From an uncultured Acidobacteriota bacterium (GTDB taxonomy: Bacteria > Acidobacteriota > Vicinamibacteria > Vicinamibacterales > SCN-69-37), in contig CAVXSP010000001.1 of NCBI GenBank assembly GCA_963764505.1, positions 3,316,614 through 3,380,613 of the forward strand: a stretch of DNA of 64,000 bases, read 5' to 3'. The stretch's first letter is position 1; each line of letters starts with the position of its first letter. Below, one piece after another: positions 2,172 to 56,122 of this stretch. Made by a program: the position numbers and the translations under genes. Below the pieces are notes generated by a model. That model had not been told where the DNA came from, ran no database searches, and saw only the letters and a program-made list of their open reading frames with translations.

Positions 2172-3674
2172 CTAATCTCCCCTGGGTCTCATCAGCGGAA
2201 ACAGGATGACATCGCGAATCGACGCGCGGTTGGTGAGCAGCATCACCAGGCGATCGATGCCGACCCCTTCGCCGGCGGTCGGCGGCAGACCGTACTCCAG
2301 CGCGCGGACGTAGTCCTCGTCCATCTGATGCGCCTCGGCGTCCCCGCCGGCGCGCTCGGCCAGCTGCGCTTCGAATCGGCGACGCTGCTCGGCGGGATCG
2401 TTGAGCTCGCTGAAGCCGTTGGCGATCTCGAAGCCGCCGGCGTACAGCTCGAACCGCTCGACGGTGTCCGGATCGTCCGTCTTCTGCTTCGACAGCGGCG
2501 ACACATCGGTCGGGAAGTCGTAGACGAATGTCGGCTGGAAGAGGCGCGGCTCCCACAGCGCCTCGAACACCGCCGTCGCGATTCTGCCCGCGCTCGGCGC
2601 CTTCGAGACGTCCAGCTTCAGGGCGCGTGCCACCTGGCCCGCGTGCTCACGGTCACGCAAGTCCGCTTCGGTGACCGGGCGGCCCAATCGGGCCGTGGCC
2701 GCCTCGGCCGCGGCCCCCCGGAGCGAGAGGCGCGGGTAGGGAGCGGCGAAGGACAGACGCTGGCCGCCGAACTCGACCTCGAGGCTCCCCGTCGCCTCCC
2801 GGGCGATCTCCATCAGCATCTGCTCGGTCATCCGCATCAGGTGCTCGTAGTCGACGTACGCTTCGTAGAACTCGAGCATCGTGAATTCGGGGTTGTGCTG
2901 GGTCGAGATCCCCTCGTTCCGGAAGTTCCGGTTGATCTCGTAGACGCGCTCGAACCCGCCGACGGTCAGCCGCTTGAGATACAGCTCCGGCGCGATGCGG
3001 AGATACAGGTCGAGATCGAGGGCATTGTGGTGCGTCACGAACGGTCGGGCCAGCGCACCGCCGGCCATCGGCTGCATCATCGGCGTTTCGACTTCGAGGA
3101 AGGCCCGCGCGTCCAGGAACCGCCGGATGCCTGCGACCACGGCAGCGCGCGTCTCGAAGACCCGCCGGGAGTCGGGATTGACGATCAGATCCAGATATCG
3201 CTGCCGGTAGCGCGCCTCGACGTCGGTCAGCCCGTGCCACTTCTCGGGGAGCGGAAGGAGGCACTTGGCGAGCAGCTCCAGGCCGGCGACCCAGACCGTC
3301 AGCTCGTCCGTCTTGGTCCGGAACACGCGCCCCTGCAGGCCGACGAGGTCGCCGAGGTCGAGGAGCTTGAAGATCTGGAAGTCGCGATCCGGCATCGAAT
3401 CCGCGCGAACGTACCCCTGGATGCGCGCCTGCCCGTCGGAGAGGACCAGGAAATTCGCCTTGCCGAAGCTGCGGATGCCCAGAACGCGGCCGGCGATGCG
3501 CACCTCCGGTCGCGTCGCTTCGAGCGTTGCGGCCGGTGTGCCGTCGTGCTCGGCCACGAGCGCGGCGACGGTGGCAGTGCGGTCGAACCGGGTCGGATAC
3601 GGCGCCACGCCGAGCCGCACCAACTCCTGGAGCTTGGCCTGCCGCTGCGCGATCTGTTCAGCTTCGTTCGACAT
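2172..3674 (-). CDS. lysS: Lysine--tRNA ligase (class II)
   Basis: ORF 2172..3743. Real start taken at MSNEAEQIAQRQAKL (ATG 3674). Class II motifs FRNEGISTQHNPEFTMLEFYEAY and GIDRLVMLLT. Confidence 0.9.
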   Translation of the reverse strand: MSNEAEQIAQRQAKLQELVRLGVAPYPTRFDRTATVAALVAEHDGTPAATLEATRPEVRIAGRVLGIRSFGKANFLVLSDGQARIQGYVRADSMPDRDFQIFKLLDLGDLVGLQGRVFRTKTDELTVWVAGLELLAKCLLPLPEKWHGLTDVEARYRQRYLDLIVNPDSRRVFETRAAVVAGIRRFLDARAFLEVETPMMQPMAGGALARPFVTHHNALDLDLYLRIAPELYLKRLTVGGFERVYEINRNFRNEGISTQHNPEFTMLEFYEAYVDYEHLMRMTEQMLMEIAREATGSLEVEFGGQRLSFAAPYPRLSLRGAAAEAATARLGRPVTEADLRDREHAGQVARALKLDVSKAPSAGRIATAVFEALWEPRLFQPTFVYDFPTDVSPLSKQKTDDPDTVERFELYAGGFEIANGFSELNDPAEQRRRFEAQLAERAGGDAEAHQMDEDYVRALEYGLPPTAGEGVGIDRLVMLLTNRASIRDVILFPLMRPRGD

Positions 3675-3685
3675 GTGCGCTGTGG

Positions 3686-3724
3686 TTTTCCACAGGAGGG
3701 GGACGGGTCTCGATCTGTGGAAAA
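3686..3724. repeat. 39-nt palindromic element, single copy (TTTTCCACAG-N19-CTGTGGAAAA), 12 nt upstream of the lysS ATG
   Basis: ttttccacaggagggggacgggtctcgatctgtggaaaa. 38/39 identical to each arm core at 39100..39196. Confidence 0.85.
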
Positions 3725-3803
3725 CCCGCTCCCGTCCCTTCAATCAGACGATTGTAGGCCGAAGCTCGGCGCCCACCGCCGGGCCGCGCCGTCGCCCGCC
3801 CTG

Positions 3804-4244
3804 TCAATCGCCTCCCGGGGCGTGGGGCTCCGCCGCGTCGAGGGTCCGCCGAATCGCGTCGAGCACGCCGTTGACGTAACGGACCGACGCGTCGGTGCCG
3901 AAGGTGCGCGCCAGCTCGACGGCTTCGTTCAGCACGACCGCGGCCGGCGTGTCCGGCTCGTGCCGCAGCTCCCAGGCCGCCATCCGCAGGATCAGACGGT
4001 CGATCGTGGCCAGCCGGTCCAGCCGCCAGTTCGTGGAATGGGCGGTAATCAGCTCGTCGAGCGCGGCTGTCTCTGACACCGTTCCCCGGACGAGGCGCGA
4101 GGCGAATTCGCGAACGGCCGCGTCCGCCTCCGGCGCATGCTCGTCGAAGAACACCGTGATCGCGGCGTCGGGTGCCGCGCGACCGGCCTCACAGAAGTAC
4201 AGGATCCGGAGCGCCGCCTCGCGCGCCTGATGGCGCGGGCTCAT
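3804..4244 (-). CDS. nusB: Transcription antitermination factor NusB
   Basis: Start at MSPRHQAREAALRILY inside ORF 3804..4517. ATGA overlap with the ribH stop (4241). NusB-like ...RLDRLATIDRLILRMAAWEL... . Confidence 0.85.
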   Translation of the reverse strand: MSPRHQAREAALRILYFCEAGRAAPDAAITVFFDEHAPEADAAVREFASRLVRGTVSETAALDELITAHSTNWRLDRLATIDRLILRMAAWELRHEPDTPAAVVLNEAVELARTFGTDASVRYVNGVLDAIRRTLDAAEPHAPGGD

Positions 4245-4694: not shown

Positions 4695-5477
4695 TCATCG
4701 ACCCCTGAAGACGGGAGCGCGCTTCTCCAAAAACGCCCGGGTGCCTTCGCGCATGTCCTCGGTCGATGCGGCGAGCCCGAACAACGACGCCTCGCAGGCC
4801 AGCCCGGCGTCGAGCGGCATGTCGAGCCCGCTCGACACGGCTGAAAGCAGGTATCCGACGGCCAGTGGAGGTTTGGCGGCGAAGGTCGCCGCCATCCGAC
4901 GCGCCGCCGCCATCAGGTCCGCCGCCGGAACGACCCGGTTGACCAGACCGATCCGGAACGCCTCGTGCGCATCGATGGGGGATCCCGTGAGGAGCAGCTC
5001 GAGCGCCCGGCCGCGACCGACGAGCCGCGGCAGCCGCTGCGATCCCCCGTAGCCGGGGATCAGCCCGAGGTCGATCTCCGGCTGCCCGAGGCGGGCGTGC
5101 TCGGCGGCGAGGCGGACGGTGCAGGCCATCGCCAGCTCGCACCCGCCGCCAAGCGCCAGGCCGTTGACGGCCGCGATGACCGGTTTGCGGAGCCGCTCGA
5201 TCCGATTGAAAGCCGCCTGGCCGCGGCGGGCCAGATCCTGCGCCTCAACCGCGCTCCGGCCGTCGAGCTCGTTGATGTCGGCGCCGGCCGCGAACGCTTT
5301 CTCCCCGGCGCCGGTGACGATCACCGCACGGATGGCCGCGTCGGCGTCCGCATCGTCGATCGCCCGGCCGAGCTCCTCGAGGGCTGCGGCATTGAGCGCG
5401 TTGAGCACGCGCGGCCGGTTGATGGTGATGACGAGCGCCGCGTCATCCCGTTCGACGAGCAGGTGCTCGTACGTCAT
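4695..5477 (-). CDS. Enoyl-CoA hydratase/isomerase (crotonase) family protein
   Basis: 260 aa. ITINRPRVLNALN...VIVTGAGEKAFAAGADI...AAVNGLALGGGCELAMACT crotonase fold motifs. Confidence 0.85.
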   Translation of the reverse strand: MTYEHLLVERDDAALVITINRPRVLNALNAAALEELGRAIDDADADAAIRAVIVTGAGEKAFAAGADINELDGRSAVEAQDLARRGQAAFNRIERLRKPVIAAVNGLALGGGCELAMACTVRLAAEHARLGQPEIDLGLIPGYGGSQRLPRLVGRGRALELLLTGSPIDAHEAFRIGLVNRVVPAADLMAAARRMAATFAAKPPLAVGYLLSAVSSGLDMPLDAGLACEASLFGLAASTEDMREGTRAFLEKRAPVFRGR

Positions 5478-26454: not shown

Positions 26455-29428
26455 CTACGGCTCGCCTCGACCATTGACGGCATCCTCAGCGACAAGGACA
26501 AGCGTCTGGCTCCGACCGTCCACTTCGAGCGGCTGGGCGCGCAGGGTCAGGCGGCGCCTGGCGCCCTGCAGCTGCATCTCCAGATCGGCGCGCCCGGCCA
26601 CGCCTCTCGAGCCCTTCTCCAGCAGGTCGCGCACCTGTGGCGAATTCCACAAGGGGCCGATCTCATCGATCGGACGCCCCTCCATCTTCGCGGTCCCCGT
26701 GCCGAAGGCGCTGCGGAACGCCGAGCTGGCGCCGAGAACCCGCCGCTCGGAATCGAGCAGCAGCATCGGCTTCCCCACGAGTTCCGATAGCGCGTCGAAC
26801 GTCGCGCGAACCTGTTCGGAGGCCGTCCGCCACCGCACGCCCTCCATCCGCACCAGCGTCAGCACGGCACCGCTGAGCCGGTTGTCGACGGTCTTGTACG
26901 GACGGACCCGCAGGAGGTGCGGCCGTCCTTCCTTGTCGTTGACCTCGCGTTCCTGGGGCGTCAGGCTGTCGAGCGTCTCGTGAATCATCGGCTCGAGGTC
27001 GAGCCCGTCGAAGTTCGGGTTGATCTGCCCGATGCGGCGTCCGACGTCACCCGGAATGAGGTTGAACATGTTCTCGGCGCGCGGTGTGAACCGCCGGACC
27101 GTCAGGTCATTGTCGACGATGACGATTGGCAGATCGACGCTGGCGAGCAGGTTGACGAGAATCGCTGTTCACCTGCGTAAGCTCCTCGTTGCGCGAGTGG
27201 AGCTCCTCGTTGAGCGTGTTCAGCTCCTCGTTCATGCTCTGGAGCTCTTCCTTGGCGGTATCGAGCTCTTCGTTGGTGCTCTGCAGCTCCTCGTTGCTCG
27301 AGAGGATCTCCTCGTTTGCCGATTGCAGCTCCTCGTTGGAGGCCTCGAGCTCCTGGATGATCGACTGGAGGTACTCGCGGTTGGCGACCAGTTCGCGCCG
27401 CAGCTCGGTGACCTGGCCGGTCGGCTCGGCCGGCCTCGCACCCTTCCGGCGCCCCTTCCGCGCGCCCGGCTTGACGGCCGGCTCGAGGAACAGGATCAGG
27501 AAGTGGTCGCCTTGCCCGCTGGTGAGCGGGACGACCTCGATCTCGACCTCGCGCCAGCTCCCGTTGACCCGCACCTGCAGGTGCTCCCTGCGGGCCGCGC
27601 GCCGGCGACGCCGCGCGGCCTCCAGCGCGGTCTGCAGAGGATGCAGCAGTCCGGTGCGCGCCATCTTCAGGACGTTGAGGTTCGGCTCGCCGGCGGCGGC
27701 CTCGAGGTAGGGCCCCGTACGTCCGCGGAACTGAACGATGTGCAGGTTGCCATCGACGACCACGCCGGCCGGCGCATACCGATCCAGCAGGAGCCGGTTC
27801 ACGTCGTCGATCATCGATTTCGGCGAGCCGGGCTGTGGTCCGGCGCCGGCCCTCCGCTCGTGAGCCGCGTCGCTGGCCATCGGCGGGCCCGATGTCATCG
27901 GCAGCCGCACGTCGACCGGAACCTTCCGGAAGATCCGCCCCCTCTTGTCGGCGGGCGTGAACAGCCCCTGCGAGCCCGTGGTCTCCGCCGATCCCAGCAT
28001 GAGGAACCCCTGGGTCCGCAGCGCGTAGTGAAAGACGGTCATGAGCCGCTGCTGCAGCGGCACGTCGAGGTAGATCAGCACGTTGCGGCAGACGATCAGG
28101 TCCAGCCGCGAGAAGGGGGGGTCACGTGTGAGATCGTGACGGGCGAACACGCACATGTCCCGAATCGCCTTCGCCACGCGATATCCGCTGTCGGTCTTGC
28201 TGAAGAAGCGCTTCAGGCGTTCGGGACTGACGTCGGCAGTGATGCTCCACGGAAACACGCCGAGGCGCGCGTGCTCGATGCTCGACTCGCTGACGTCGGT
28301 GGCGAAGATCTGGACCCGCCGCTCGGGCGCGCGGTCGCCCAGGACCTCGTACAGACAGATCGCAACGCTGTAGGCCTCCTCTCCAGTCGCGCAGCCGGGG
28401 ACCCACACGCGGATGTCGCTGTCCTGCCGCGACTGCGTGATCGTGGGAAACACGATGGACTGCAGACCGGCGAACGATTCCGCGTCGCGAAAGAACCGCG
28501 TCACGTGAATCAAGAGGTCCTGCCCGAGCGTGGTGGCCTCGTTCGGATGCTCGGTCAGGTAGGCCACGTACGCCCCGACGTCCACCAGCCGCAGCACCGC
28601 CATCCGACGCAGCAGCCGCCGCTTGATCGTCGGCAGCTTGTAATGTCGGAAGTCGATGCCGCTCGTCCGGCGGAGGATCGCGAAGATTTCGCGCAGCTGC
28701 GCGTCGGGAACGTGCGCGTCGGCCCCTTCGTCCGGATCCGCGCTGGGCGGCGCGAGATACGGATGCGACCGCACCTGGGCGATCTGTTCGGCGATCTCTT
28801 CGGGCGACAGCACCAGATCCACCAGGCCCGTCTTGATGGCTGCGCGCGGCATGCCGTCGTACTTCGCCGTTTCGGGCGATTGGGCGATGGTGATCCCGCC
28901 CTGCGCCTTGATCTCCCGGATGCCCGCAGCGCCATCCGATCCGGTGCCCGACAGGATGACGCCGATGGCCCGCCCACGTGCCCACTGCGCGAGCGAGGTG
29001 AACAAAGTGTCGATGGCCAGGGGCGGCACCGGGCGCCGGGCATCCGCCCTCAGGTGGATGCAGCCCTCTCTCACCTCCGCAGCCATGTGCGGAGGGATGA
29101 CGTAGAGCACGTTCGGCTCGATCCGCGTCCCGTTCGTCGGGTCCACGACCTTCAACGGCGTCTTCGCCGCGAGCAGGTCCGGCAGAGTGCTCTCCTGGGC
29201 CGGCCGATGCTGCACGAACAGCAGCGCCACGTTCGGGGACTTCGGTAACCGGTCGAGCAACCGGAGAAACGCCTCGAGCCCGCCCGCCGACGCGCCGACG
29301 GCGACAATCGTGGCGTGGACCGGCGACTCTGCGGTCTGGGATCTCGTGGCCTGTCGCGCTGCGGGCGTGGATCGGCGCGTGCTCGTTGAGCGTGCGGGCC
29401 CCGACGAAGAACTGCGCTTCCGCGCCAT
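26455..29428 (-). pseudogene. CheB methylesterase - CheR methyltransferase - PAS/coiled-coil fusion signalling protein, frame broken by a 1-nt insertion (possibly an assembly artefact)
   Basis: ORF 27107..29428 carries a CheB-like domain (VGASAGGLEAF...GVILSGTGSDGAAG), a CheR-like domain (RVWVPGCATGEEAYS...LIVCRNVLIYLD) and heptad repeats NEELQS.... ORF 26455..27069 continues the family-typical ...FNLIPGDVGRRIGQI... PAS region. Removing one base of GAATC 27159-27163 joins them (...QVNSD|LVNLLASVDLPIVIVDNDLTVRRFTPRAENMFNL...) into 990 aa. Confidence 0.8.
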
Positions 29429-37808: not shown

Positions 37809-39107
37809 TCAGGCCGGGTCTCCGGCGTGGTCTGCCGCGAACAGCGCGACCACCTCGACGTGCGGCGTGTTGGGGAACAGATCGAACGCCTCGATCGAGC
37901 GCAGTTCGTAGCCAGCGGCGACGAGCTTCAGCCCGTCTCTTGCGAGCGTCGGCGGGTCGCACGAGACGTACACGATTCGAGGCGCACCCGCGGCCGCGAG
38001 GTGCGCCATCGCCGCAGGAGAGACGCCCGCCCGCGGCGGATCGAGCACGATGACGTCCGACCGCGGCCACTCGCCTCGACCGCCGAAGGCTTCGACCGCG
38101 AGCGACGCGACCTGGAGACGCGCGCCGTGAGCCTTCGCATTGAGCCGCAGATCCGCGACGCTGACCGGATCGCTCTCGACGGCGACGACGCGGCTGCCGT
38201 GGGCGGCGAGGGCCACCGCGAACAGGCCGACGCCCGCGTAGAGGTCGAGACACCGCTCTCCCTCCCCGACCTCCAGGACGCGCCGCACGAGCGCACCCAG
38301 AAGGAACCGGTTGCCCTGAAAGAACGATCCGGCCTGACGCCTCCACGTGACCGCCGGATCGATTGGCGGGCTGCCGCCGAACACGTCCGCGGCGGTATCG
38401 CTGACGCGGGCGCTTCCATCGACGACGACGGTCCGCAGCCCTTCGGCGCGCGTGACGCCCGTCACGCGCGGCAGCCGATCGACGCTGAGACGCAGCCCAT
38501 GGAGACGTCCGGACACACGCGGCACGACGTGCAGCACGCGCTCGGTGGCCTCGACGTTCTCCGCGATGAGGATCTCGTCGACGTCCGCCAGCCGCGCGCC
38601 GAGACCGGCGGCGAGCGCGTCGGCCGCCGGCATCGCGTCCGGGTGCAGCTGCCCCGTCGGTCCGGGGTCGCACACGACGTGGGACGCCTCGCGGAAGAAC
38701 CCGATCCGCCGGCCGCGAACGTGCAGGCGCGCGCGGAGCCGGTACCCCGACTCGGCCGAGGCCCGGACCACCGGCGCCTGCGGCAGCTCGATCCGGCCGA
38801 TGCGACGGAAGGCATCCACGATGACGTCCGCCTTGAGCTGGAGCTGGCGCGGATAGCGGATGTGCGCGTAGTGCGCGCCGCCGCACGCGGGATCGCATGC
38901 GTGGGGGCGGCGGTCCTCACTCGGCTCGATCACCTCGACGGTGTCCGCCCACGCCATGCTGCGCGTCGCGCGCTCCAGCCGCGCCAGCACCCGCTCGCCC
39001 GGCACGGCCCCGGACACGAGGACGACGCGGCCGTCGTGGCGGGCCAGCATCCGCCCGCCGGCCACCGGCCGCTCAATCACCAGATCGAGGAGAGAAGGCT
39101 TTTCCAC
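37809..39107 (-). CDS. TrmA/RlmD-family RNA (uracil-5-)-methyltransferase with N-terminal TRAM-like domain
   Basis: ORF 37809..39167. TRAM-like LDLVIERPVAGGRMLARHDGRVVLVSGAVPGERV. SAM-binding LDLYAGVGLFAVALA and VLDPPRAG, C-terminal FDLFPNTPHVE. Start is GTG 39107 (inside the palindromic repeat) or GTG 39080. Confidence 0.75.
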   Translation of the reverse strand: MEKPSLLDLVIERPVAGGRMLARHDGRVVLVSGAVPGERVLARLERATRSMAWADTVEVIEPSEDRRPHACDPACGGAHYAHIRYPRQLQLKADVIVDAFRRIGRIELPQAPVVRASAESGYRLRARLHVRGRRIGFFREASHVVCDPGPTGQLHPDAMPAADALAAGLGARLADVDEILIAENVEATERVLHVVPRVSGRLHGLRLSVDRLPRVTGVTRAEGLRTVVVDGSARVSDTAADVFGGSPPIDPAVTWRRQAGSFFQGNRFLLGALVRRVLEVGEGERCLDLYAGVGLFAVALAAHGSRVVAVESDPVSVADLRLNAKAHGARLQVASLAVEAFGGRGEWPRSDVIVLDPPRAGVSPAAMAHLAAAGAPRIVYVSCDPPTLARDGLKLVAAGYELRSIEAFDLFPNTPHVEVVALFAADHAGDPA

Positions 39108-39196
39108 AGGAGGGGGACGGGTCTCGATTTGTGGAAAACTCGGCCCCCAGGACCGAGTTTTCCACAAATCGAGACCCGTCCCCCTCCTGTGGAAAA
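39100..39196. repeat. Perfect 44-bp inverted repeat with 9-nt spacer (two inverted copies of the 39-nt TTTTCCACA...TGTGGAAAA element)
   Basis: Arm 39100-39143 ttttccacaggagggggacgggtctcgatttgtggaaaactcgg. Spacer cccccagga. Arm 39153-39196 is its exact reverse complement (checked base by base). Confidence 0.95.
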
Positions 39197-39853
39197 CTAC
39201 CCGACGTCCAGGGTCGGGAGCCCGTAGAGGTCCCTGACGAAGCGATCGAGCGTGACGTCGATGGCGCGGCGCCAGGCGTCCTCGTCCAGGCGATCCCGAA
39301 AGGCGGCGAGATCCGTCGAGGCCGCCTTCGAGAGCGTGTCCATCGCCGGAGCGTCTGTCGCGGCACGGGCCGCGAGGAGCAGCCGCCCGTCCAGCGCCTG
39401 CAACTGCGCGGTCACCTCGCCGCGCGCGGGCCCGCGCGCCTTCGCCGCGACCTCCCGCAGCGCGGCCAGCTCCTCCAGCACTCCATCGATCGTCCGCAGG
39501 AACGGTTCCGGCAGGTCGAGCCGACCGGCCACGCGGCCCAGCCGGTCGATTGCGCGATCGATCCGCTTGACCGGCGACGGCGCGCGCCGGGACGCGGCGG
39601 GCTCGTCCGGCGGCTCATCGGCCGGACCCGTCCGCGGCACGCCCACCGCGCGCCGCCAGCTCTCGTAGATCTCCCGGACGTCGCTTTCGCAGAACTCGAT
39701 CCGGAGCGGCCGACGCGCGCGGCCGAGCCGATGCCGCTCGGCCTTGACCTCGATGCCGCGGAAGACGATCGTCAGCGGGACGCCGGCCTCCGCCCACGAG
39801 CGCACGAGCTCGAAGCCGGCGCCCACGATGCGCACCAGGTGCCCGCCGTTCAC
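39197..39853 (-). CDS. Hypothetical protein (218 aa)
   Basis: GTG start 13 codons after the birA stop in the same frame. Pro-rich centre, helical C-terminal half. No recognisable motif. Confidence 0.5.
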   Translation of the reverse strand: MNGGHLVRIVGAGFELVRSWAEAGVPLTIVFRGIEVKAERHRLGRARRPLRIEFCESDVREIYESWRRAVGVPRTGPADEPPDEPAASRRAPSPVKRIDRAIDRLGRVAGRLDLPEPFLRTIDGVLEELAALREVAAKARGPARGEVTAQLQALDGRLLLAARAATDAPAMDTLSKAASTDLAAFRDRLDEDAWRRAIDVTLDRFVRDLYGLPTLDVG

Positions 39854-54170: not shown

Positions 54171-54183
54171 AGACGAGGGCTGC

Positions 54184-54270
54184 GGGCTCTGGACGCTGGG
54201 CTCTGGGCTCTGGGCTTCGGGCGACATCGAAGCCCAGAGCCCAGAGCCCAGAGCCCGAAGCCCAGAGCCC
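54184..54270. repeat. Hairpin built from inverted arrays of 7-nt tandem repeats (GGGCTCT / AGAGCCC); core 22-bp perfect stem
   Basis: 54198-54219 gggctctgggctctgggcttcg pairs perfectly with 54228-54249 cgaagcccagagcccagagccc (8-nt loop). Extra repeat units lie on both flanks. Located between the rpsA stop and the IHF start. Confidence 0.85.
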
Positions 54271-54271
54271 T

Positions 54272-56026
54272 TTACTTCAGATGCTTGAAGTGATCCCCCA
54301 GCGTCACCTCCGGGCGGCCGGACGATTCGGTGTAGGCCTCCCAGTCGGCCCGGTACTCCTGATCCTTCAGGGCGCGAATGCTGAGCCCGATCTTCCGCTC
54401 CTCGGGCACCAGCCGGATGATCTTCATCTGATAGGTCTCTCCGGTCCGGAGCTCGAGCTTCTCGCCGCCCTGCGAGGAGTCGAACTCCGAGACGTGGATC
54501 AGCCCCTCGATGCCGTCGGCCAGCTCGACGAACGCGCCGAAGTTGGTCAACCGGACCACCTTGCCCTCGACGATGTCGCCGACGTGGTGCGCGTCGAAGA
54601 ACTCCTTCCAGATCCCGGTCTGCAGCTGCTTCAGGCCGAGCGACAGCCGCTGGTTCTCGGCGTCGATGCTGAGCACCTGCGCTTCGACGACGTCCCCCTT
54701 CTTGAGCACCTCCGAGGGGTGCTTCACCTTGCTCCAGGACATGTCGGAGATGTGGATGAGGCCGTCGATGCCCTCCTCCACCTCCACGAACGCGCCGAAC
54801 TCGGTCAGGTTCCGGACCTTGCCGGTGATCGTGCTGCCGACGGGGTACTTGTCCGCCAGCTCGTGCCAGGGGTTCGTCTCGACCTGCTTCAGGCCCAGGG
54901 AGATGCGGCGTGCGCCCGGGTCGACGCCGAGCACCATCGCCTCGACGGCGTCGCCCTGGTTGAGGATCTTCGACGGGTGCTTCACCCGCTTGCTCCACGA
55001 CATCTCGGAGACGTGGATGAGCCCTTCGACGCCCGGCTCGAGCTCGATGAACGCGCCGTAGTCGGTGAGGCTGACGACCTTGCCGGACACGCGCATGCCC
55101 ACCGGATAGCGCTCGATGACGGCGTTCCACGGATCGGCGACGATCTGCTTGTGTCCGAGCGAGACGCGTTCGGTGGCCGGATCGTACTTGAGGACGATCA
55201 CGTCGAGCTCGTCGCCGACCTTGACGACCTCCGACGGATGCGTCACGCGGCCCCAGGACATGTCCGTGATGTGCAGCAGCCCGTCGATGCCGCCCAGGTC
55301 GATGAACGCCCCGTAGTCGGTGAGATTCTTGACGGTGCCGCGCAGCACCTTCCCCTCCGACAGCGTGTCGAGCGTGATCTTCTTCTTCTCGGCATTCTCC
55401 TCTTCGAGCAGGACCTTGCGCGAGAGCACGATGTTGCCGCGCTTCTTGTTGACCTTGATGACGCGCATGCGCAGCTCCTGGCCCTTCAGGGCGTCGAGGT
55501 TGCGCACGGGGCGGACGTCGATCTGCGATCCCGGCAGGAACGCCCGGACGCCGATATCCACCGCCAGCCCGCCTTTGATCCGCTCGATGACGCGGCCGAT
55601 GACGACCTTCCGTTCCTGGTAGGCCTTCTCGACCTCGTCCCAGATCTTCATCTTCTCGGCCTTCTCGCGGGAGAGGACGACGTATCCCTCGCGATCCTCG
55701 GTGCGCTCGAGCAGCACGTCGACGCTGTCGCCAGGCTGCGCCATCACCTGGCCGCTCTCGTCGAGGAACTCCTCGATCGGGATGAGGCCTTCCGACTTGA
55801 AACCGACATCGACAATGACCTCGGTCGGCGTGACTTTGACGACCGTGCCCTTGACGACTTCGCCTTCCGCGATGTTGCGGAAGCTGGTATCGTAAAAGTC
55901 CGCCAGGCGCGCGTATTCCTGCGGATCCATCTCTTCGCCGTCGCGGGAGGAGGAGAATGTTGAAAAGCCCTTCAGGGTCTTCGTGCCTCCTTGTCGAAGC
56001 TGGGTTCTCTTTGACTCATCTGTCAT
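54272..56026 (-). CDS. rpsA: 30S ribosomal protein S1
   Basis: ORF 54272..56047 with six S1 (OB-fold) repeats (…VVKGTVVKVT…, …VIGRVIERIKGGLAVDIG…, etc.). Start ATG 56026 (MTDESK), or internal ATG 55930. Confidence 0.9.
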   Translation of the reverse strand: MTDESKRTQLRQGGTKTLKGFSTFSSSRDGEEMDPQEYARLADFYDTSFRNIAEGEVVKGTVVKVTPTEVIVDVGFKSEGLIPIEEFLDESGQVMAQPGDSVDVLLERTEDREGYVVLSREKAEKMKIWDEVEKAYQERKVVIGRVIERIKGGLAVDIGVRAFLPGSQIDVRPVRNLDALKGQELRMRVIKVNKKRGNIVLSRKVLLEEENAEKKKITLDTLSEGKVLRGTVKNLTDYGAFIDLGGIDGLLHITDMSWGRVTHPSEVVKVGDELDVIVLKYDPATERVSLGHKQIVADPWNAVIERYPVGMRVSGKVVSLTDYGAFIELEPGVEGLIHVSEMSWSKRVKHPSKILNQGDAVEAMVLGVDPGARRISLGLKQVETNPWHELADKYPVGSTITGKVRNLTEFGAFVEVEEGIDGLIHISDMSWSKVKHPSEVLKKGDVVEAQVLSIDAENQRLSLGLKQLQTGIWKEFFDAHHVGDIVEGKVVRLTNFGAFVELADGIEGLIHVSEFDSSQGGEKLELRTGETYQMKIIRLVPEERKIGLSIRALKDQEYRADWEAYTESSGRPEVTLGDHFKHLK

Positions 56027-56122
56027 CGCGTTCAAGGGCCTCCTCACGCACGAGCGTGCTGCGCCGGGTCGAAGCGCCGGCGCGCGCTAGATTCGCTTCG
56101 CAACGGGTGCGATAAGCATTTT

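Follow-up and report, generated by a model that had tools for sequence, protein, structure and literature searches.

The stretch of DNA analysed here, hereafter the window, comprises 64,000 nucleotides of about 69% G+C from an uncultured bacterium of the Vicinamibacterales (Acidobacteriota), and our attention has centred on the 129-nt spacer that separates nusB from lysS on its minus strand (Table 1). This spacer contains a 39-nt unit that reads TTTTCCACAGGAGGGGGACGGGTCTCGATCTGTGGAAAA on the plus strand and that is found again twice, with one mismatch each, at 39100-39138 on the plus strand and 39158-39196 on the minus strand; no such 39-mer match arose in 100 shuffles of the sequence. The unit follows the pattern TTTTCCACAGGAGGGGGACGGGTCTCGAT[C/T]TGTGGAAAA, in which a single C/T position varies. 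The original prediction that the lysS leader and the 39100 locus carry the same element is therefore upheld, while its remark that both copies point the same way with respect to the gene downstream carries no weight since the 39100 locus holds both orientations. There the two units build a palindrome of 97 nt that folds as RNA to -95 kcal/mol; its arms, each 47 nt long and 98% complementary, hold four TTTTCCACA boxes. In all, the window harbours two loci and three units in 64 kb, both loci being intergenic; the start of the methyltransferase-like gene downstream of the doublet is uncertain and may be a GTG at 39080 or a GTG at 39107 within the outer box.

Table 1. Positions of the genes, repeat modules and flanking motifs at the two loci of the repeat (window coordinates)
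Feature	Position	Strand	Remarks
lysS, class II lysyl-tRNA synthetase, 500 aa	2172-3674	-	ATG at 3672-3674
CTGTGG flank, pairs with outer-box CCACAG	3680-3685	+	Sequence, relatives' spacers, folding
Insertion relative to the relatives' empty sites, ~65 nt, approximate extent	3680-3746		Between shared motif and CGCAC-ATG
Complete 39-nt unit, subtype B	3686-3724	+	1 mismatch to both 39100-39196 units; box and core in 14 metagenome contigs
Outer box TTTTCCACAGG	3686-3696	+	Part of 39-nt unit
G-rich core AGGGGGACGGGTCT	3697-3710	+	Part of 39-nt unit; followed by CGAT
Inverted inner box CTGTGGAAAAC	3715-3725	+	Part of 39-nt unit
CCCGTCCC, core remnant of lost inverted partner arm (decayed doublet)	3731-3738	+	Read from sequence
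Motif common to the three closest relatives, minus-strand GGCCTACAATCGTC	3747-3761	-	Spacer comparison
TACAAT, -10-like hexamer inside CCTACAATCGTC	3751-3756	-	Common to the three closest relatives
nusB, upstream of lysS, same strand	3804-4244	-	Gene call
tRNA (uracil-5)-methyltransferase-like gene	37809-39107	-	Directly downstream of doublet
Intact REPIN-like doublet	39100-39196		Two units, (+) and (-), with 19-nt spacer
218-aa gene, family unassigned	39197-39853	-	TAG stop (39197-39199) abuts doublet

The sequence in front of the lysS start codon reads, on the minus strand, ...GAGACCCGTCCCCCTCCTGTGGAAAA followed by CCACAG, CGCAC and the ATG (also given as ...CCCGTCCCCCTCCTGTGGAAAA-CCACAG-CGCAC-ATG), exactly as had been claimed, and the three local pairings proposed for it are all present. 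The first joins TTTTCCACAG (3686-95) to CTGTGGAAAA (3715-24) in a 10-bp stem with a 19-nt loop, a stem-loop that each unit of the window can form; the second, GGGACGGG (3700-07) with CCCGTCCC (3731-38), is interleaved with the first; the third, CTGTGG (3680-85) with CCACAG (3690-95), competes with the first for the same bases and forms in RNA a CUGUGG-AAAA-CCACAG hairpin that ends 5 nt before the lysS AUG. The calculated RNA energies amount to -11.3 kcal/mol for the box hairpin, -8.0 for the start-proximal hairpin and -14.9 for the helix of GGGACGGG with CCCGUCCC between arm and remnant, and in the RNA ensemble the mutually exclusive box and start-proximal hairpins reach probabilities of about 0.28 and 0.72, respectively. 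The entire lysS leader is barely more stable than its shuffles (z = -1.93). Rfam returned no match over the whole window at the gathering threshold and none for 3400-4000 at E <= 1; a scan of 3500-4000 for sigma-70 promoters and terminators found neither a full sigma-70 match nor a U-tract, and the window yielded no tRNA or tmRNA gene.

The repeat itself accounts for these helices. The 10-bp hairpin is the unit's own box/inverted-box pair, and the GGGACGGG/CCCGTCCC helix is what is left of the arm-to-arm pairing of a doublet whose second arm has been mostly deleted; the two are interleaved because a hairpin internal to the unit and a helix between units coexist in a truncated doublet. It is only as parts of a repeated palindromic element that the pairings exceed chance, and they are not independent evidence of RNA structure. 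The earlier suggestion that 3731-38 is the remnant of a second inverted copy is the best reading, since GGGACGGG finds its pairing partner CCCGTCCC in the opposite arm both of the intact doublet and of the metagenome copies. That arm reads AGACCCGTCCCCC in intact elements, and a similarly decayed second arm occurs in L087. The lysS copy is best read as one full 39-nt unit followed by an 8-nt remnant of its inverted partner arm. As for CTGTGG at 3680-85, it may be native target sequence, because relatives have CGTCACAC or CGTCAGAC at the corresponding place.

The homologues of LysS place the organism in the Vicinamibacterales. Five contigs of Vicinamibacterales in which ribH-nusB-lysS is syntenic (LysS 76-85% identical) formed the comparison set, and all five lack the element. 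Their nusB-lysS spacers measure 24 nt in L096 (LysS identity 85%), 65 nt in L097 (84%), 66 nt in L098 (81%), 14 nt in L101 (77%) and 8 nt in L102 (76%), and no copy of the repeat family occurs in some 90 kb of these relatives' lysS regions. The motif (G)CCTACAATCGTC is common to the window and the three closest relatives, L096-L098; the hexamer TACAAT that it contains stands 11-13 nt before the lysS ATG in these three contigs and about 75 nt before it in the window; L101 and L102, which are more distant, lack it. It is tempting to regard TACAAT as a putative promoter element. Given the extra ~65 nt between the shared motif and the ATG, and spacers of 8-66 nt in the relatives versus 129 nt here, the comparison with these empty sites shows the element to be an insertion into a formerly short nusB-lysS spacer; the part of the window spacer that lies outside the element comes to 64 nt, against 65 nt for the spacer of L097. 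Since spacers of only 8-24 nt occur in relatives, it is almost certain that across the wider clade nusB and lysS share a transcript. Conservation of the leader in related genomes had been set beforehand as a test of the proposal that the competing helices form a lysS switch, and the leader is conserved in none of L096, L097, L098, L101 and L102, which counts against that proposal.

When JGI metagenome contigs were scanned for the 20-nt core CACAGGAGGGGGACGGGTCT, the matches, with unrelated flanks and in both orientations, numbered 17 on 14 soil contigs, ten of them from one sample. Over outer box and core, the window family and these 14 contigs are identical at 25/25 nt. Copies are mostly intergenic, in the window as on the metagenome contigs, and full elements are for the most part near-perfect hairpins of 90-130 nt (-60 to -105 kcal/mol); doublets also occur in L082-L086, L088, L092, L093 and L095. 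The order of modules is an optional GGGGGAG, the outer box (A/T)TTT(C/G)CACAGG, the G-rich core AGGGGGACGGGTCT, the inner box, a variable centre and the mirror image, the latter often without its outer box. The centre of the hairpin varies between copies, yet stays largely self-complementary. Two subtypes can be told apart by the inner box: in subtype A it is direct (core-GTTTTCCACAGG) and the half-element by itself forms no hairpin, whereas in subtype B, which comprises the three window units together with L082, L087 and L090, it is inverted (core-CGATNTGTGGAAAAC). No target-site duplication was visible by eye at the window or metagenome copies examined, which is consistent with Y1 transposition, as expected. 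The flanks are GTGG, GTAG and AGGC in the window and mostly (GGGG)GAG in the metagenome copies, so that a 5' GTAG tag is not consistent. The copy number of the family may be modest, because only two loci lie in 64 kb and none in the ~90 kb of relatives' lysS regions.

A separate element of about 140 nt, GTTTTCCACA...CTGTGGAAAAC-GGC.CCCAG.CCCCC..CCCCCGTTTCCCACAGC..CCGCTCTACGACGACGA, is common to L043 (150-380) and L065 (820-990), two MAGs of different acidobacterial classes, where it lies next to IstB genes. It has the same box motif with another, C-rich core and may represent a related repeat family.

With respect to the enzyme behind the repeats, L091 is the most informative contig. There a minus-strand ORF stands between two half-elements of opposite orientation, the cores of which lie at 276+ and 948- and in which box and core are identical at 25/25 nt; the product of this ORF has an HUH motif (NHWHLV) and the tyrosine motif YVERNALRA. 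This product matches Pfam Y1_Tnp at 31.8 bits (cutoff 23), and its only and best NCBIfam match is NF047646, the REP-associated tyrosine transposase, over the full length at E = 1.8e-19 and 70 bits, below the equivalog cutoff of 80; homologues likewise match this model over their full length, at E 1e-15 to 1e-20 and with 56-74 bits against the same cutoff. In the large protein database that was searched, homologues of the L091 transposase number 5,942 at E <= 1e-20, and several of them have been named 'REP-associated tyrosine transposase' by JGI. In four contigs (L091, the P0121 contig, L099 and L100) the transposase gene sits between purN (Formyl_trans_N) and purM (AIRS), the four proteins being only 56-93% identical (56% for the L099 orthologue and 63% for that of L100); this placement points to the single-copy, syntenic behaviour that the available excerpts of PMC5581495 describe for RAYTs. 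The orthologues are flanked by GGGGG(A/T)C...-TTTTCCACAG repeats, and in L099 and L100 the flanks read GGGGGTCAGATC(G)TCTTTTCCACAG and GGGGGACGGGTGTCTTTTCCACAG, the box being kept while the core drifts (gene and repeat regions at 276-948 in L091, 9900-10680 in L099 and 9880-10010 in L100). Gene callers routinely extend the transposase ORF through the flanking repeat and thereby yield tails of the PVENRPVP type: among the top 120 homologues, 74 have the tail VE[NK] (from GTGGAAAA) and 41 have VEN..P.P, that is box plus core. The copies that flank transposase genes belong to subtype A, those of the window to subtype B. A tblastn search for the transposase in the 64-kb window and all fetched loci matched L091 only, with none in the window, and we assume that the source genome carries a cognate RAYT.

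All this leads us to regard 3680-3738, with considerable confidence, as a decayed copy of a REP/REPIN-type (or TIR-repeat/TIRYT-type) mobile repeat and not as a lysS switch. Such elements would be non-autonomous and would depend for their copying in trans, probably by way of single-stranded DNA hairpins, on a tyrosine transposase of the Y1 (HUH) type that is encoded once and is of the RAYT/TIRYT kind. In this Vicinamibacterales (Acidobacteriota) lineage one copy landed in the short nusB-lysS spacer, as the empty sites of the relatives show. The helices belong to the element's own design, in which box and inverted box form the unit ends and the arms of the two units in a doublet pair with each other. 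We infer from the sequences that the element has transposed, and the simplest reading of the box is that it would be the recognition module of the transposase. The lysS copy is probably transcribed together with its gene, and the hairpins may have an incidental effect on the stability of the lysS mRNA or the initiation of its translation, as REPs do in Escherichia coli, where mRNA stabilisation, attenuation and effects on the translation of neighbours are known. Nothing indicates that the lysS copy is a selected sensor or switch.

As the available excerpts of PMC3116915, PMC3337134 and PMC5581495 have it, REPINs are inverted REP doublets of which singlets are decayed forms, and RAYTs occur in a single copy, descend vertically and stand between their own repeats. 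Set against the REP/REPIN-RAYT systems, as far as these are described in excerpts of Bertels & Rainey 2011 (PMC3116915), Nunvar et al. 2010 (PMC2817692) and Bertels et al. 2017 (PMC5581495), the window family has in common short extragenic palindromic units and long-hairpin inverted doublets, singlets that look like decayed doublets, a syntenic single-copy Y1/HUH gene flanked by the repeats, and insertions that are polymorphic among relatives and leave no target-site duplication. It differs in that the 5' GTAG (GT[A/G]G) tag at the hairpin foot is not consistent, in that the elements are longer (up to ~130 nt) and the subtype A half-element is not a hairpin, in that its module is the DnaA-box consensus, and in its host phylum, the Acidobacteriota (Vicinamibacterales), which has been little studied for REPINs. 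The names TIRtron and TIRYT have been given to RAYT-like genes that lie within long inverted repeats carrying GGGGWSAS; they include an Acidobacteria-specific group, and their TIR repeats are dispersed as singles, dimers and clusters (PMC3733652). With these systems (Di Nocera et al. 2013, PMC3733652) the present family shares a RAYT-like gene within long inverted repeats that are not classical GTAG REPs, a GGGGWSAS-like motif (GGGGTCAG in L099, 8/8; GGGGACGG in L091, L100 and the window family, 7/8), and the dispersal of repeats as singles and dimers. DnaA_C-like domains have been reported on a related transposase subclass, the repeats of which were noted to be unlike DnaA boxes (Quentin et al. 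2018, PMC6006769). The proteins of this TnpA_REP subclass 2.1 (PMC6006769) are reportedly long and bear a C-terminal HTH or Bac_DnaA_C-like domain, whereas the ~200-aa proteins here have only Y1_Tnp, no DnaA-like C-terminal domain being found by Pfam at E <= 5 in five homologues of 199-220 aa; moreover, the published TIR consensus is described as not DnaA-box-like, whereas here a perfect DnaA-box-like 9-mer stands directly beside the GGGG motif. The family is a previously undescribed Vicinamibacterales member of the known REP/REPIN or TIR-repeat class of RAYT/TIRYT transposases, and four departures set it apart from the classical definition: no GTAG tag, a modular box-core-box structure, two orientations of the inner box, and boxes that equal the DnaA-box consensus. 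A REPIN/TIR-repeat family with a Y1 transposase resident between purN and purM is thereby documented in the Vicinamibacterales, a soil lineage that is abundant and barely studied.

The last of these departures deserves to be weighed on its own. The conserved module TTTTCCACA, of which there are two per unit and four per full element, fits perfectly the pattern TT[AT]TNCACA, quoted in PMC6006769 as the high-affinity DnaA-box consensus. It occurs six times in the window, always inside units, where 0.08 occurrences would be expected, and in exact form in 37 of the 43 family boxes. One may wonder whether TTTTCCACA is a functional box, the pairs of which would recruit or titrate DnaA or let it regulate adjacent genes, a role that could coexist with a mobile repeat. 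The consensus fit and the confinement of all six window occurrences to units speak in its favour, as do the same box-N21-inverted-box geometry near dnaA/dnaN in the Acidobacteriota MAG loci L002, L039 and L054 (Pfam-verified) and in many origin-like clusters of boxes from other phyla, and the constancy of the box while the core diverges (L099, L100) and the orientation flips between subtypes. On the other hand, conservation reaches beyond a DnaA box to G-TTTTCCACA-GG, 42/43 boxes having G at -1 and 38/43 having G at +1 in a sample that was selected for box similarity and is biased accordingly; the whole 39-nt unit is conserved rather than the boxes alone, as expected of recent copies; the box is linked to RAYT gene ends, which makes recognition by the transposase the simpler reading; and the window contains neither dnaA nor dnaN. 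On balance we hold a DnaA-binding role for unlikely, if worth keeping in mind. When GTDB genomes were scanned with the generic pattern TTTTCCACA-N21-TGTGGAAAA, at least 80 loci were retrieved, mostly origin-like clusters of DnaA boxes and many of them in other phyla; among the matches listed, none had the interior sequence of the window unit.

A combined version, which we consider equally unlikely, would have a REPIN-like family built on genuine DnaA boxes, whose copies might titrate the initiator or use the DnaA/origin machinery to target or time RAYT copying. If true, this reading would connect replication control with a family of domesticated transposons and would explain the DNA-binding domain, similar to that of DnaA, on the sister transposase group, TnpA_REP subclass 2.1; the transposase, DnaA or both could recognise the invariant DnaA-box-like 9-mer. 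As a side observation, the box pairs in L002 (5060-5098), L039 (6768-7204) and L054 (6615-7058) lie in the dnaA-dnaN or dnaA-upstream region with further TTTTCCACA boxes, and these regions are candidate origins.

Another reading would see in the element an intercistronic hairpin selected by the host, as a stabiliser of mRNA or a transcription attenuator, and repeated for its usefulness and not through mobility. Both window copies do occupy short spacers, the genes on either side being co-directional, and one copy abuts the stop codon at 39197-39199, and the hairpins are very stable. The empty site in relatives, the occurrence of both orientations, the association with a transposase and the lack of a U-tract nevertheless make this account improbable, and effects of this kind would be secondary to a mobile repeat and in agreement with that explanation.

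It could also be argued that the repeat is a MITE derived from an insertion sequence with a DDE transposase, for instance of the IS21 type with several transposase-binding repeats per end. The layout of subtype A, with two direct boxes on one arm and two inverted ones on the other, resembles ends with multiple transposase-binding sites, and the box pairs in L043 and L065 adjoin genes for IstB (IS21 family). Yet the homology between L043 and L065 begins at the box and leaves out the IstB side, so that the element is separate from the IS21 copies; no DDE transposase flanked by the family core was found, nor any target-site duplications; and exact repeats directly flank the Y1 transposase, the sole gene found between repeats. 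Such an origin seems very improbable.

Least credible of all, and close to untenable, is the lysS-specific RNA leader of the original prediction, a translational or attenuation switch in which exclusive or pseudoknotted helices would detect a signal and regulate the expression of lysyl-tRNA synthetase: the alternative helices are near in energy, the start-proximal one sits next to the AUG, the element lies probably in the transcribed region downstream of the -10-like TACAAT of the close relatives, and its position, with alternative helices just upstream of a start codon, is all that it shares with known aminoacyl-tRNA synthetase leaders (T-box, lysine riboswitch, thrS-type translational operators), whereas, unlike these, it is missing from the orthologous leaders in 5/5 syntenic relatives, recurs with identical sequence at an unrelated window locus and 14 unrelated metagenome loci, matches no Rfam family even at E <= 1, belongs to a leader of z only -1.93 with no terminator, terminator-like U-tract or anti-Shine-Dalgarno logic, and has an apparent second case beside a LysRS gene (class I lysK in L003) that is not kept in the relatives of that contig. 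For the mining of riboregulators a false lead is thereby removed, as a structured tRNA-synthetase leader turns out to be a mobile-repeat insertion.

The L003 candidate was rejected as a coincidence. A perfect TTTTCCACA-N21-TGTGGAAAA pair lies there at 4912-4950, 2 nt before the lysK ATG, and overlaps the -10 region and the 5' UTR; in the relatives L103 and L104 the promoter TTGACN-17-TAGNTT is preserved and the boxes are missing. The contig, labelled Candidatus Sulfotelmatobacter, may be mis-binned, the nearest homologues of its LysK being alphaproteobacterial (Magnetospirillum, Telmatospirillum).

Some observations touch on translation initiation in this genome. A Shine-Dalgarno motif (GGAG/GAGG/AGGA) precedes only 6 of the 21 called genes near lysS, and TAnnnT hexamers stand 6-13 nt before the ATG of several genes, for example those starting at 1854, 7486 and 8198 of L001 (the window's own contig, reversed) and lysS in L096-L098. 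Because of these two features, initiation that is leaderless, short-leader or otherwise independent of Shine-Dalgarno pairing seems to be widespread in this Vicinamibacterales genome. The lysS locus is of interest in this regard as a stable 65-nt hairpin insertion between a -10-like motif and the Shine-Dalgarno-less start codon of an essential gene.

Finally, the window contains other repeats. A second, unrelated palindrome of about 96 nt, made of GGGCTCT/GGGCTTC heptamers with 44-nt arms that are 86% complementary, occupies 54176-54271 and fills the spacer between the stop codon of rpsA (ORF 54272-56047, six S1 domains) and a minus-strand ATG at ~54170; the lysS leader of L098 carries GGGCCTGGGGCC repeats that resemble those of this palindrome. 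At 27159-27394, nine tandem copies with a 21-nt period (AGCTCCTCGTTG...) probably encode a repeat of seven residues on one strand.
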